Below the pieces are notes generated by a model. The model was not told where the DNA came from. It saw nothing but the letters and a program-made list of their open reading frames with translations, and made no database searches. The translations under genes were made by a program, and so were the position numbers. Shown piece after piece: positions 20,483 through 32,985 of a stretch of DNA of 64,000 nucleotides. The stretch covers positions 47,964-111,963 of the forward strand of contig JAERMQ010000005.1 in assembly GCA_016844745.1 (NCBI GenBank). Direction: 5' to 3'. This DNA comes from Ignavibacteria bacterium. Lineage in GTDB: Bacteria; Bacteroidota; Ignavibacteria; Kapaibacteriales; UBA2268. Every line of letters starts with the position of its first letter. Within the stretch, counting starts at the first letter, position 1.

Positions 20483-20560
20483 GAATGTCATCGTAAGCGA
20501 AGTGAAGAATCCAGTCCCTATGTTTGTTCCGGATTCTTCACTTCGCTTACGAATGACATT
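20483..20560. repeat. Palindromic intergenic element, copy B
   Basis: Left arm gaatgtcatcgtaagcgaagtgaagaatcc, loop agtccctatgtttgttcc, right arm ggattcttcacttcgcttacgaatgacatt. Confidence 0.9.
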
Positions 20561-20698
20561 TTTCCGGACTTTTTATATAATTTTAAATGCTGGAATTACT
20601 ATAATTAGAACTACCTTTTTTTTAATTTAGTTGTTATTATTTTGTTTTAAGATAGAAATTTTTTATATTTACTTTTTATTTTATTAATCAATATCGTT

Positions 20699-26091: not shown

Positions 26092-26165
26092 TCCCGAGTA
26101 GCTCAGCTGGTTAGAGCACCTGACTGTTAATCAGGGGGTCCACAGTTCAAGTCTGTGCTCGGGAG
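26092..26165 (+). tRNA. tRNA-Asn (anticodon GTT)
   Basis: Hand-folded cloverleaf. Acceptor tcccgag/ctcggga, D stem gctc/gagc, anticodon stem cctga/tcagg with loop ctGTTaa, T stem cacag/ctgtg. Confidence 0.93.
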
Positions 26166-26266
26166 CTTTATTTTGAAAGCCATACATCCTATTTTTCTAA
26201 TATTCCCTTAACTCAAATATAAGCAATTGCATATTGATAAAAAATTTAAATTTGGTAACAGGTCAA

Positions 26267-26603: not shown

Positions 26604-27878
26604 ATGAATATCAAAACTACAGCAGGTGTTGACCGAATTGTTAAGGCAAGAAATGATAAGATTTATGCAGAGTTATTAGATAAGGATACTTCAATTTTAT
26701 TTGACGACCCCTTAGAGAACGATATGGTTCTTAACATGGGACCCCAGCATCCCGCTACACACGGCGTTCTCCGGGTAGTTTTGCGATTGGATGGAGAAAA
26801 TGTAATTAATGCCGTTCCGGAACTGGGATACCTCCACCGTGGCTATGAAAAATTGGCTGAGAATCTCAATTATCATGAATTCATCCCATTTACCGACCGA
26901 CTGGATTACCTTGCGCCATTTTCAAATAATGTGGCAATTGCCCTTGCTATCGAAAATGCCCTCGGTTTGGAAACACCTGAGCGGGCAAAGTGGGTGCGTA
27001 CTTTGGTAAGCGAACTTGCCCGGATTTCATCGCATTTAATGGCAATGGGTTCCACTTGTATGGATGCCGGCGCTTTGACACTACTTCTCTGGACTTTTAT
27101 CGAACGTGAAAAGTTATATGATATATTTGAATTGATTTGCGGAGCCCGCTTTACGACAAGCTACACGCGCATTGGCGGCATTGCCAACGATATTGATGAT
27201 GCTACAATTGTAAAAATTCGCAAGTGGGCTGATGAATTTCCCGCTGAATTGAAATATTTCGAGGCTCTCGTTAACCGAAATAGAATTTTTGTGAATCGTC
27301 TTGCCGGTATCTGCATTATGCCACCGGAGAAGGCTATAGCGCTTGGTTTGACCGGTCCTACTCTTCGCGGTTCGGGTGTGCCTCGTGATTTGCGCAGGGA
27401 CGAACCGTATCTCATTTATGACCAGTTGGATTTCGACGTTATTACATTCCCCGATTGCGATGTATGGTCGCGGTATCAAGTGAGGGTGCAGGAAATGAAG
27501 CAAAGTTTGAAGATGGTCTATCAAATCTTGGATAAAATGCCTAAAGGGGAGATTATATCCAATAAACACAAAGCTTCGCTGCCACGAAAAGCTTCTGTAT
27601 ATACCAAGATGGAAGAATTAATCAATGATTTCATGCTGGTTAATTTCGGTGCTGCACCGGAAAAAGGAGAAACCTATACACCAATTGAATCTCCAAAGGG
27701 TGAATTAGGATTCTTCATCGTTTCAGACGGAACGGGTCAACCATGGAAATTGAAAATCCGCTCGCCTTCTTCTTCAAATCTGCAAGGCTTACCTGAAATG
27801 ATTATCGGCTCGATGATTGCAGATGTGATTTTGGCAATTGGCTCTATAGACCCAATCATGGGCGAAGCTGATAAGTAA
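26604..27878 (+). CDS. nuoD: NADH-quinone oxidoreductase subunit D (49 kDa subunit)
   Basis: Motifs NMGPQHPATHGVLR, LGYLHRG, RSPSSSNLQ and DPIMGEADK. No other nuo genes lie in the window. Confidence 0.9.
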   Translation: MNIKTTAGVDRIVKARNDKIYAELLDKDTSILFDDPLENDMVLNMGPQHPATHGVLRVVLRLDGENVINAVPELGYLHRGYEKLAENLNYHEFIPFTDRLDYLAPFSNNVAIALAIENALGLETPERAKWVRTLVSELARISSHLMAMGSTCMDAGALTLLLWTFIEREKLYDIFELICGARFTTSYTRIGGIANDIDDATIVKIRKWADEFPAELKYFEALVNRNRIFVNRLAGICIMPPEKAIALGLTGPTLRGSGVPRDLRRDEPYLIYDQLDFDVITFPDCDVWSRYQVRVQEMKQSLKMVYQILDKMPKGEIISNKHKASLPRKASVYTKMEELINDFMLVNFGAAPEKGETYTPIESPKGELGFFIVSDGTGQPWKLKIRSPSSSNLQGLPEMIIGSMIADVILAIGSIDPIMGEADK

Positions 27879-27904: not shown

Positions 27905-28909
27905 ATGAAGAATATTGTAAATCATCTTGAGATAAGCAACTTCAAATCCATAAAAAATTTGAAGATGGATTGCAAGCGGGTCAATATTTTCATTGGCGGA
28001 CCTGATGTTGGCAAATCTAATATTCTAGAAGCATTAGGACTGTTTTCGTTGCCTTTTGGTGTGAATTATTATGCTGGTAATATTAAGGATTTCATTCGTT
28101 ATGACAAACTATATCAATTCTTTTACAATTTTGATTTTTCAAAACCGATTGAAGTAACCACTGATAAATTTCATTGCAGAATTGATTATAATAATAGAAC
28201 CGAAAGTTGCATTATTAAGTATCTTGAACCATTTCATGATGATAGTTTTATTGAAAAAGAACTGAATGTAAATAGTAGTGGTCAACTTACGATCCATAAC
28301 GATTTAGGAAATTACCAAATATTTTTTTATCGTTATATGCAAGCAGAACATAGGATTTTTAATGGAAAGTTCTTAATGCCCCCTTTAGGTTGGAACATTC
28401 AGGAAATCATCTTTATTAATCAAGTTGCACGTTCATTAACAAAAAAAATTTTGGAATCAAATAATAGGGAACCTGTTTTTATAAAGCCCGATAATACTTT
28501 GGTCCAACAAATTAATGTCGGGATTGATGAAAGAGTGCAATTACCATACATTCTATTTTCGGATGGGATGAAGCATTTGTTGTTCAATTTAGCTGCTATT
28601 ATGACCAATACAGATTCTGTGGTTATACTTGAAGAACCGGAATCGCATAGTTTCCCCTATTATTCCGGATTGATTGCTGAAAAAATTGCCGAATCAAAAA
28701 CCAATCAATTTTTCATTGCTACTCATAATCCCTATTTCCTAGATAAAATTATCGAAAAAACTCCCTTGAATGAACTTAATATTTTTATTGTAGATTTTAT
28801 TAATAATGAAACTACAATAAAGAGTCTTAAAGAAAAAGAAATCATTGAAATTATTGAAAATGACATTGATACTTTTTTTAATCTGGATAGGTTTTCTAAT
28901 GAAAAATAG
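27905..28909 (+). CDS. ABC-type/AAA_21-like ATPase (SMC-head-like, no coiled coil)
   Basis: N-terminal LEISNFKSIK. Walker A is GGPDVGKSNILEAL, signature-like is FSDGMKHLL, Walker B is VVILEEPESH and H-loop is IATHNP. Confidence 0.8.
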   Translation: MKNIVNHLEISNFKSIKNLKMDCKRVNIFIGGPDVGKSNILEALGLFSLPFGVNYYAGNIKDFIRYDKLYQFFYNFDFSKPIEVTTDKFHCRIDYNNRTESCIIKYLEPFHDDSFIEKELNVNSSGQLTIHNDLGNYQIFFYRYMQAEHRIFNGKFLMPPLGWNIQEIIFINQVARSLTKKILESNNREPVFIKPDNTLVQQINVGIDERVQLPYILFSDGMKHLLFNLAAIMTNTDSVVILEEPESHSFPYYSGLIAEKIAESKTNQFFIATHNPYFLDKIIEKTPLNELNIFIVDFINNETTIKSLKEKEIIEIIENDIDTFFNLDRFSNEK

Positions 28910-29414
28910 AATTAGGATTCTTACGGAATGTTTCCCGGATACACTTCTTATAAAGTTATTATTGAATACAAAAAAAATTGAACATGAAGGTGGGAAGCCA
29001 TCTGTTGGTAGGAAATTAGAAAAGTTTTTAACTCAAAAAGGAAAAGGTAAAATAGTTACAATTCTAGATGAGGACTCGAATTCTCAGGCATTGACTCACC
29101 CAATCTTTGACAAATTTTCATTACTTATAGACATAAAAGAACTGAAACTTAAGTATTTTCATTTTAATAATTGTTTTATAATTTATTTTAGTCCCAATCT
29201 TGAAATTTTTTTATTAAATGCAGCAAAAATAGCTAAGGTTAATCTAGAAGAATTTAAACTTTCTTCTGATTCAAAGACCCTTCACAATGAAATAAGCCTC
29301 AAAAGACCACCTAAAAATTATAATGAATTGATAAAAAAATTGTTAAATATTAATTCCAAATCTTTATCATCACTTAAAGAGTTAATTAAAGGCTCATCGA
29401 TAGCCAAAAAATGA
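28899..29414 (+). CDS. Small Toprim-like protein (DUF4276/DUF4435-like pattern), partner of the ATPase
   Basis: RIRILTECFPDTLL (conserved Glu) followed by VTILDEDSN (DxD-like). The preferred ATG at 28899 overlaps the ATPase stop by 11 nt. The ORF track start at 28845 lies inside the upstream gene. Confidence 0.5.
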   Translation: MKNRIRILTECFPDTLLIKLLLNTKKIEHEGGKPSVGRKLEKFLTQKGKGKIVTILDEDSNSQALTHPIFDKFSLLIDIKELKLKYFHFNNCFIIYFSPNLEIFLLNAAKIAKVNLEEFKLSSDSKTLHNEISLKRPPKNYNELIKKLLNINSKSLSSLKELIKGSSIAKK

Positions 29415-30028
29415 AAAAAGGACTTAAAATAAATTATCTCGATTTTACAACCGAAAAACGTAAAAAAAAATTAATATCTGTGCTGTCAAATCGGCAGCCG
29501 AGCCTGACAGTAGTACTCGAAAACATTAACGACCCCCATAATTTATCAGCGGTTCTGCGCTCCTGCGATGCAGTCGGTGTTTTGGAAGCTCATCTTATTT
29601 ATTATGGAGAGCAACCATTTCCGCATCTATCTAATACAAGCTCTGCAAGCGCCTCTAAATGGGTCAATACAATTCGCTTCGATTCCATCCAAACAAGTTA
29701 CGAGAAGCTCCGCAAAGAAGGTAAGAAGATTTACACAACCCACATGTCTAAGAAAGCAGTGTCATTATATGATTTGGATTTAACCGAGCCTGTTGCACTC
29801 GTATTCGGAAATGAACATTCTGGCGTCTCGGAAGATGCTGCCAACCTCGCCGACAGCAATTTCTTAATACCCCAGGTCGGGATGATACAAAGCTTAAATA
29901 TATCGGTTGCGGCTGCTGTCAGTTTATTTGAAGCATACCGGCAAAGAATGGCAGCAGGAATGTATGACCAGCCGGTTTTCGATGAAGAACAGTTGCAGAA
30001 TATGCTTGAGCAATGGGCTGCAAGGTAA
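29411..30028 (+). CDS. trmH: SpoU/TrmH-family tRNA/rRNA 2'-O-methyltransferase
   Basis: Motifs VLENINDPHNLSAVLRSCDAVG, FGNEHSGVS and SLNISVAAA. ATGA overlap with the upstream gene. Confidence 0.85.
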   Translation: MKKGLKINYLDFTTEKRKKKLISVLSNRQPSLTVVLENINDPHNLSAVLRSCDAVGVLEAHLIYYGEQPFPHLSNTSSASASKWVNTIRFDSIQTSYEKLRKEGKKIYTTHMSKKAVSLYDLDLTEPVALVFGNEHSGVSEDAANLADSNFLIPQVGMIQSLNISVAAAVSLFEAYRQRMAAGMYDQPVFDEEQLQNMLEQWAAR

Positions 30029-30087: not shown

Positions 30088-30173
30088 GAAGAAGGTCATT
30101 CGTAAGCGGAGTGAACAATCCAGTCCCAGCATTGTGACTTGATTCTTCACTTCGCTTACGAATGACATTCTTC
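30088..30173. repeat. Palindromic intergenic element, copy E
   Basis: Left arm gaagaaggtcattcgtaagcggagtgaacaatcc, loop agtcccagcattgtgactt, right arm gattcttcacttcgcttacgaatgacattcttc. It lies between convergent genes. Confidence 0.9.
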
Positions 30174-30215
30174 TTGATTTTTTTAAGATTTTGAAACGAA
30201 AATCAAATAATGGTT

Positions 30216-32617: not shown

Positions 32618-32670
32618 TTTTTTCATAGTTAAAATATCATTACTGCATTCAAGGCTATGTGAGAAATCGA

Positions 32671-32756
32671 GAAGAATGTCATTCGTAAGTGAAGTGAAAA
32701 ATCCACTCCCAATACTGATGCTGGATTCTTCATTTCACTTACGAATGACATTCTTC
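32671..32756. repeat. Palindromic intergenic element, copy F
   Basis: Left arm gaagaatgtcattcgtaagtgaagtgaaaaatcc, loop actcccaatactgatgct, right arm ggattcttcatttcacttacgaatgacattcttc. Outer arms aggctatgtgagaaatc / gactttacatacagcct also pair. Confidence 0.9.
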
Positions 32757-32900
32757 TTGACTTTACATACAGCCTCATTTACTCGGAATGACATAATATT
32801 AAAATTCTCAAATTTTCAAAACTCTCAAATTCCCCAAAAAATCTCAAATTCCTTTTTGAAATTAGCGATAATTTTAGCAATTTTGTAATCCGGATCATAA

Positions 32901-32985
32901 GGAGGATTCGCATAATGGTATTGCAGCGGTCTTGAAAACCGCCGGGCGTCAGCCTGTGGGGGTTCGAGTCCCTCATCCTCCGCCA
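32901..32985 (+). tRNA. tRNA-Ser (anticodon TGA), type II with long variable arm, encoded CCA
   Basis: Acceptor ggaggat/atcctcc. Anticodon stem gcggt/accgc with loop ctTGAaa. Long variable arm, T loop ttcgagt, 3' gCCA. Confidence 0.88.

Follow-up and report, generated by a model that had tools for sequence, protein, structure and literature searches.

AbiL, PARIS, Mad3–Mad4 and OLD belong to the kind of system that joins an ABC ATPase with a Toprim nuclease. Here we describe a pair of overlapping genes in a 64,000-nt stretch of DNA from an Ignavibacteria bacterium (contig JAERMQ010000005.1; hereafter the window, to which all coordinates of its features refer), which most likely represents a compact member, hitherto uncharacterised, of the relatives of the anti-phage systems AbiL and PARIS. 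The first gene (27905–28909, + strand) encodes an ATPase of 334 amino acids (aa), the presumed sensor or regulator subunit. The second (28899–29414, + strand) encodes the partner, whose 171 aa presumably form a minimal nuclease effector of a Toprim-like type. Both are located between nuoD and a trmH-like gene. Two-gene systems composed of an ATPase and a Toprim protein are already well known, and the family found in the window, with proteins of about 330 and 155 aa, is a compact form of them that introduces no new principle. It has been described that the ATPase–Toprim systems work as a sensor plus a tRNase (PMC11464382, PMC12409363, bioRxiv 10.64898/2026.07.10.737580), and tRNA is the substrate in PARIS and P2 Old.

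The AbiL system (AbiLi + AbiLii) from Lactococcus plasmids, whose mechanism is unknown (PMC13064643), is a two-gene operon with the same order as the pair in the window: the gene of an AAA_15/21 ABC ATPase precedes that of a small partner, which in AbiL is of the Toprim/RloB type. Among the PADLOC models, AbiLi fits the window ATPase best (PDLC02336, 9.2e-20, 69.5 bits, covering profile positions 3–340 of 340; this model has no curated cut-off), and AbiLii is the most frequent, albeit weak, match in the family of the small protein (8 of 140 members, best 1.7e-4). However, the small protein of the window has no AbiLii match itself, and the partner, of about 155–171 aa, has no RloB Pfam match. 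Moreover, AbiL is plasmid-borne, whereas the window pair is chromosomal and embedded in what looks like an operon in Kapaibacteria. When plasmids were searched with the ATPase by tblastn, nothing was retrieved beyond one truncated fragment and a match to Walker A.

PARIS (AriA + AriB) also comprises an ABC ATPase as its sensor and a separate Toprim effector. The AriA models match the window ATPase at 3.7e-13 and 1.7e-9, more weakly than AbiLi, and the PADLOC models that rank after AbiLi are HEC-01A, PDC-M38A, GajA and AriA. The top match in the Protein Data Bank (PDB) for the predicted fold of the small protein, 2p62_A, is not significant (Foldseek E 0.029, probability 0.77, TM 0.41), although the same structure is the top HHpred match reported for a lactococcal AriB (PMC11381338). 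Both PARIS subunits are larger: AriA has about 53–55 kDa (about 450–500 aa) with a trigger-sensing insertion, compared with 334 aa here, and AriB has about 35 kDa with a DUF4435 domain, whereas the window partner has 171 aa and no DUF4435 match. Furthermore, PARIS is common on phages and satellites, while viral contigs contain no full-length relative of the window family.

The Mad3–Mad4 proteins of MADS, as well as other AAA_21 + DUF4276 pairs, likewise consist of an ATPase and a small DUF4276-type Toprim protein. Their motif order, EGxxD ... DxD ... ExW, resembles the ECxxD ... DED ... LExW of the small family described here, and weak mad4 matches are found in 6 of its 140 members. However, the MAD3 equivalog (NF047739) scores only 40.3 bits against the window ATPase, with a cut-off of 420, and aligns to residues 205–281 only. 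There is no significant DUF4276 match for the small protein, and the other MADS genes are not present. Class 1 OLD, Gabija GajA and Septu PtuA provide the closest solved ATPase structures and share the same set of ATPase motifs. In OLD and GajA the Toprim domain is fused to the ATPase, whereas the window ATPase has no fused domain. Gabija also needs the UvrD-like helicase GajB, while the neighbours of the window pair are nuoD and trmH, and Septu needs the HNH protein PtuB, none being found at the window locus. In comparisons of hidden Markov models (HMMs), AbiL is closer to the window pair than PARIS or Gabija. The affinity to OLD, PARIS and Gabija proposed in the original prediction is retained for the type of the ATPase (OLD/AbiL/PARIS), but the nearest named system by HMM is AbiL.

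The ATPase Subunit

With 334 aa and no coiled coil, the first protein is an ABC ATPase of the defence type (OLD/AbiL/PARIS-type). It contains a Walker A motif (GGPDVGKS), a signature-like sequence (FSDGMK), a Walker B motif (ILEEPE) and an H-loop (ATHNP, within IATHNP), and it matches the Pfam families AAA_21 (6.3e-12) and AAA_15 (5e-9). The AlphaFold2 (AF2) model, with a predicted local distance difference test (pLDDT) score of 92.9, has a compact head, in which a beta-rich insert at about residues 82–142 takes the place of the coiled coil. The Foldseek neighbours of this model are PtuA, Thermus scotoductus OLD, GajA, retron-associated ATPases and Rad50/SMC heads, all of them with a probability of 1.0. 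Pfam, PADLOC, AF2 and Foldseek agree on the ABC/SMC-head-type ATPase without a coiled coil that had been read from the motifs alone. The NCBIfam equivalogs MAD3, RecF, PtuA and Rad50 give partial matches only, far under their cut-offs.

Homologues of the ATPase form 1358 clusters at 90% identity, the best being only about 40% identical to the window protein, and nearly all of them are 312–368 aa long. Their hosts include Zixibacteria, Planctomycetota, Dehalococcoidia, Methanoperedens and Thermoplasmata. Walker A, Walker B (EEPE), NQ and the TH of the H-loop are invariant in an alignment of 120 sequences, and the window protein has all of them.

The Small Partner Protein

The small protein belongs to a real family, with members of about 150–175 aa. 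A full HMMER scan of 1.84 billion representatives yielded 210 relatives at E ≤ 1e-3, the family comprising at least 210 cluster representatives (clusters at 50%), and nearly all of the 150 relatives listed are about 140–190 aa long. The start at ATG 28899 is consistent with the N-termini of 140 aligned homologues. In this alignment, E10, D57 and E102 are invariant, while C11, D14, H29, D59 and P99 are at least 90% conserved, and the window protein retains the eight residues. The E...DxD pattern noticed in the original prediction, carried by the motifs RILTECFPD and ILDEDSN, is real and conserved throughout the family.

The AF2 model of the small protein (pLDDT 91.8, predicted template modelling score 0.87) shows an N-terminal alpha/beta core followed by a C-terminal helical bundle. 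The predicted positions of the acidic residues are the end of strand 1 for E10, the end of strand 3 for D57-E-D59 and a helix start for P99/E102. A Toprim domain should have a Glu after strand 1, a DxD after strand 3 and a beta2-beta1-beta3-beta4 sheet; alignment and model place E10 and D57-x-D59 at the secondary-structure positions expected of the first two features. The same placement of acidic residues has been described for Toprim, DUF4276 and RloB domains (PMC12065111).

The Toprim-like identity suggested for the partner has thus found support in the position of its acidic residues, but not in any significant HMM, profile or fold match. The window small protein has no match at E ≤ 1 in Pfam, PADLOC, NCBIfam or PHROGs, and none to DUF4276, DUF4435, RloB or Toprim models. 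With its model as the query, Foldseek found no match at E ≤ 1e-3 in either PDB or BFVD, and sequence profile searches of PDB, with the full profile of the family or with that of its N-terminal core, gave nothing relevant. A word-indexed homology search retrieved only the protein itself, and the same search with the 140-sequence profile retrieved only six unnamed proteins. When the family was compared by hhalign with six DUF4276/RloB-like partners from viral contigs, the probability was 0.4%, despite the three motifs lining up.

Weak matches were detected in other members of the family. In addition to those to AbiLii and mad4, they include AriB (2 of 140 members, 0.021 or weaker), PDC-M38B (1 of 140), OLD-like_TOPRIM (3 of the 99 members scanned) and DUF4276 (1 of 99), with DUF4435 and RloB not being among the 25 families listed for these 99 members. 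Weak as they are, the matches to AbiLii, Mad4, AriB and OLD-Toprim and the structural match to 2p62 point the same way. We regard a Toprim-like nuclease as the most likely, though only probable, identity of the small protein.

The viral-contig partners mentioned above (from L166, L167, L169, L178, L184 and L186) are associated with other AAA_15/21 ATPases, are 217–267 aa long and give weak RloB/DUF4276 matches. The motif order EGxxD ... DxD ... (S/T)xExW is common to these proteins and the small family.

Pairing and Distribution

The two proteins are strictly paired. A metagenome scan with the ATPase alignment yielded 80 loci, 70 of which were testable, having at least 450 nt downstream. A homologue of the small protein (E 1e-26 to 1e-57) is encoded immediately downstream of the ATPase, on the same strand, in 68 of the 70, and the two genes usually overlap. 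The linked pair is also present at L001, L002, L004, L191, L192 and L194. An archaeal Methanoperedens locus contains the same pair in an unrelated context. The co-occurrence of the two genes elsewhere, on which the original prediction depended, is therefore well documented, and neither the open reading frames (ORFs) nor their pairing can be attributed to chance, because both proteins have hundreds of homologues and the pair is found in 68 of 70 testable loci.

The distribution of the pair family is patchy over bacterial phyla and archaea. Its neighbours elsewhere are diverse and mostly housekeeping genes (DinB, aconitase, ribosomal L3, TsaD and others), and several small groups of metagenome loci have conserved neighbours. 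No recurrent integrases or defence genes were found among the most frequent neighbour families of the metagenome loci.

Four loci have an intact ATPase but a small gene broken into two ORFs (L108 4975–5461, L120 2516–2858, L137 3238–3727 and L157 4954–6435), and these copies are probably in decay. At L087 2277–3428, the pair is immediately preceded by another, distantly related AAA-type ATPase ORF (E 6e-13 to the family profile). At L094 897–4281, a high-GC metagenome contig, the pair is found between NuoB-like and NuoC/D-like ORFs. This would be a second, independent association with Complex I genes, for which chance is plausible, at a rough estimate of one in three over 80 loci.

Organisation and History of the Insertion

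The pair is flanked upstream by nuoD (26604–27878, + strand; TIGR01962 NuoD match at 2.9e-149) and downstream by the trmH-like gene (29411–30028, + strand), which encodes a SpoU-family tRNA/rRNA 2'-O-methyltransferase (SpoU_methylase 1.4e-34). The closest NCBIfam model of the latter is NF008295 TrmH (1.3e-55, 188.5 bits, under the model cut-off of 227 bits), and both flanks had been correctly named in the original prediction. A gap of 26 nt separates the end of nuoD from the ATPase start, the ATPase stop and the small ORF overlap by 11 nt, and the small ORF and trmH overlap by ATGA. These spacings, the coordinates and the motifs quoted beforehand are all present in the sequence.

A simple consensus scan found no terminator-like site between nuoD and trmH, and a strong hairpin followed by a T-run lies directly 3' of trmH (30088–30181, + strand). 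This probable terminator is a palindromic repeat element with 41-nt arms and an RNA fold of −64.5 kcal/mol (z −7.7). For these two reasons nuoD, the ATPase gene, the small gene and trmH look like a single transcription unit, in line with the earlier proposal of a pair packed among housekeeping genes. The G+C content of the pair (0.27–0.30) is lower than that of its flanks (0.42–0.43). The same is observed in five out of five loci examined, with 0.26–0.33 for the pair versus 0.35–0.46 for the flanks.

The window nuoD retrieved 80 species-level genomes, largely labelled Kapaibacteria or Ignavibacteria, with nuoD identities of 67–80%. The pair is carried by just one of them (L040, the same contig as L003). 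In 24 genomes nuoD is directly followed by trmH without the pair, with gaps from −41 to +430 nt, and the remaining ones have other genes downstream of nuoD. No remnants of the pair were found in the larger nuoD–trmH gaps of these relatives. A clean empty site is provided by L035, a near relative of the pair-bearing L002 (96% and 94% protein identity in nuoD and trmH, respectively), in which the nuoD|trmH junction has 11 nt. Because 79 of the 80 related species genomes lack the pair and some of the junctions are clean empty sites, it is an accessory insertion in a housekeeping operon and not part of the core, as the synteny survey proposed along with the original prediction was intended to distinguish.

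The closest ATPase relatives (P0003, P0006, P0020 and P0076) are all encoded directly upstream of trmH, preceded by nuoD in three cases and by thrS in one. A sixth trmH-linked locus carries the closest relative of the small protein and has an identical layout. The six trmH-linked copies, including that of the window, are all highly divergent and keep the order ATPase–small protein–trmH, with the genes overlapping or abutting. The five full-length ATPases among them form one clade with 60% bootstrap in a neighbour-joining tree of 200 sequences. Within this clade, identities are 70–78% for nuoD, 54–68% for trmH, 38–50% for the ATPase and 28–39% for the small protein. In the trmH tree, loci that have the pair are intermingled with loci that lack it, which agrees with the nuoD tree and the host phylogeny.

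Since the trmH tree follows the host phylogeny, trmH is considered an ordinary orthologue and not a dedicated component of the cassette, and a dedicated TrmH paralogue was rejected. Recurrent independent insertion at a hot spot was also rejected, as the five trmH-linked ATPases fall in one clade. These data suggest a long-resident, co-transcribed cassette. The simplest history would be one old insertion at nuoD|trmH in a Kapaibacteria ancestor, after which a few lineages kept the cassette by vertical descent and it was lost repeatedly, with the exchange of cassettes through the conserved flanks as an alternative. The pair had been described as wedged between nuoD and trmH; it is indeed an accessory insertion, but the trmH-linked copies form an old clade of their own, which implies long-term residence at this junction and not a recent arrival.

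Other cargo has been observed near this junction. In the pair-bearing relative (L002/L003 6127–7252), HicA/HicB and ParE/Phd toxin–antitoxin modules lie directly downstream of trmH. Directly downstream of nuoD, a NERD-domain protein is encoded at L005 2118–3362, a response-regulator + PglZ protein at L042 5541–7106, an ORF of equal size in the equivalent place at L045 5558–7126 and a GT9 glycosyltransferase at L049 5241–6341. The 3' side of nuoD seems to be a variable junction in the related genomes.

Proposed Role and Alternative Explanations

On balance, we favour the explanation that the pair is a compact two-component anti-mobile-element module (abortive-infection or toxin–antitoxin-like) of the ABC-ATPase plus Toprim-nuclease kind, and we regard it as reasonably probable. 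By analogy with the described systems, we infer a nuclease activity, a complex between the ATPase and its partner, a trigger, a substrate and a defence phenotype. The ATPase would oligomerise and keep the small partner inactive, acting as an oligomeric sensor and antitoxin in a similar way to PARIS, Septu, OLD and AbiL (PMC11464382, PMC12409363, PMC13064643). A trigger coming from the phage, or an altered ATP state, would release or activate the small partner, whose acidic cluster (E10, D57, D59 and E102) may bind two metal ions and cut nucleic acid. Its activity on infection would lead to growth arrest, and the cassette would be expressed as a passenger of the nuoD–trmH operon.

Several observations weigh against this explanation. 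Besides the searches with the small protein that gave no significant match to a Toprim, DUF4276, DUF4435 or RloB family or to a known structure, no full-length relatives of the pair were found among 2.9 million viral contigs. The pair is surrounded by ordinary housekeeping genes and not by a defence island. In addition, the permanence of the cassette beside trmH through deep divergence would be less expected of defence genes with a fast turnover.

The retention of the pair could also be explained by a selfish, toxin–antitoxin-like addiction module, in which the small protein is the toxin and the ATPase the antidote, and which is kept since its loss is harmful, with no real anti-phage benefit. 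This would fit with a pair kept at one site over hosts whose nuoD differs by 22–30% while both of its proteins evolve fast, with a cassette in which no promoter or terminator of its own was found, and with its location outside defence islands and its absence from viral contigs. PARIS itself acts as a type II toxin–antitoxin pair (PMC13064643). However, clean losses are common, with about two dozen empty nuoD|trmH junctions, including that of the close relative of L002, so that any addiction would be weak, and the split, probably decaying small genes of L108, L120, L137 and L157 stand beside intact ATPases. Furthermore, the characterised relatives of the ATPase are all defence proteins, and we consider addiction without defence unlikely. 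The small protein might instead be a non-catalytic adaptor or regulator of the ATPase, with the acidic residues binding a metal or a partner and the ATPase or an unlinked factor as the effector. Its unusually small size and the lack of a significant Toprim match by sequence, profile or fold are in agreement with this possibility. Nevertheless, for a family of 155 residues, the three invariant acidic residues together with the conserved His and Cys fit an active site better than an interface, their placement matches the Toprim topology, and the weak matches are all to nuclease partners of the same ATPase class, which makes an adaptor role quite improbable. RecF is an ABC ATPase and RecR contains a Toprim domain, so a divergent RecF/RecR-like mediator pair acting in recombination with the nearby recO was also considered. 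The N-terminus of the ATPase matches RecF (TIGR00611 1.1e-6; PDB RecF 1.6e-6), recO lies 1.9 kb upstream in the window, and it abuts the pair in L129 and L155. But the RecF matches are confined to the Walker A region (residues 3–70), TIGR00611 reaching only 28 bits against a cut-off of 172 over residues 6–49, and the small protein lacks the helix-hairpin-helix and the Cys4 zinc finger of RecR. The family is present in archaea, the pair is missing from almost all of the related genomes, L129 and L155 are the same sequence, and L001, L002, L191 and L192 have no recO close to the pair. The distribution already comes close to refuting such a recombination pair, and with the partial RecF matches and the missing RecR features it was rejected as extremely improbable.

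The linkage to trmH raises the question of a housekeeping RNA role, such as tRNA/rRNA processing by an RNase M5-like small Toprim ribonuclease together with the ATPase. All six trmH-linked loci keep the ATPase–small protein–trmH order, even with thrS upstream instead of nuoD, and RNase M5 is a Toprim RNase which AriB resembles (PMC12409363). This role is, however, very unlikely. The pair is present in only one of the 25 species genomes that keep the nuoD–trmH linkage, trmH is nearby in none of the 80 metagenome loci, trmH here is an ordinary orthologue, and RNase M5 was not retrieved by Foldseek with the small-protein model. It could be envisaged, with a similarly slight probability, that the cassette of the Kapaibacteria clade is functionally coupled to TrmH, the small protein being a tRNA-cutting Toprim nuclease translation-coupled to a Gm18 methyltransferase. 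Nuclease activity or self-protection would then be linked to the modification state of tRNA, for example with Gm18 marking host tRNA as self; alternatively, the operon coupling would make the loss of the cassette costly. The linkage is intriguing since the relatives of the pair are tRNases, but it is limited to one clade, and its history explains it adequately.

If the pair is indeed an anti-mobile-element module, it would represent a large family of minimal ATPase + mini-Toprim systems that is invisible to current defence annotation. PADLOC- and Pfam-based pipelines would not see it because no model for the effector exists in Pfam, PADLOC, NCBIfam or PHROGs. Counted in clusters, the family would exceed 1300 for the ATPase (at 90% identity) and reach at least 210 for the small protein (at 50%), spread over many bacterial phyla and archaea. 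With a total of about 500 residues, it would be among the smallest sensor-plus-nuclease systems of its class, and this compact size would be convenient for structural and mechanistic studies on the gating of Toprim nucleases by ABC ATPases. In addition, the locus suggests that such modules can persist for long as promoter-less passengers in housekeeping operons, beyond the reach of island-based discovery.

Other Features of the Window

A defence island was looked for in the window and rejected, the surrounding genes being ordinary housekeeping or other genes. The neighbourhood includes CNNM/CorC, recO, tRNA-Asn, a protein with a type IX secretion system tail and a tetratricopeptide repeat (TPR) protein. 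The operon is preceded by the tRNA-Asn(GTT) gene (26092–26166), with recO on one side of this tRNA gene and nuoD on the other. The nuoD gene is solitary, with recO and the tRNA upstream and without adjacent nuoB or nuoC, and in many Kapaibacteria it is trmH, and not other nuo genes, that follows nuoD. At L129 5521–6561 and L155 1677–2717, recO is convergent with the small gene and abuts it, recO being identical in both. The proximity of recO in the window and in these two loci is judged a coincidence.

The element located after trmH is one of a family of long imperfect palindromes with arms of 41–54 nt and the core GAATGTCATTCGTAAG, with copies at 30088–30181, 32652–32775 and 20537–20561. One copy lies right after trmH and another after the TPR gene, and five half-site matches were found versus zero expected. 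The family looks like a repetitive extragenic palindromic (REP)-like or terminator element. Finally, tRNA-Ser(TGA) is encoded at 32901–32985, 3' of the second palindrome.

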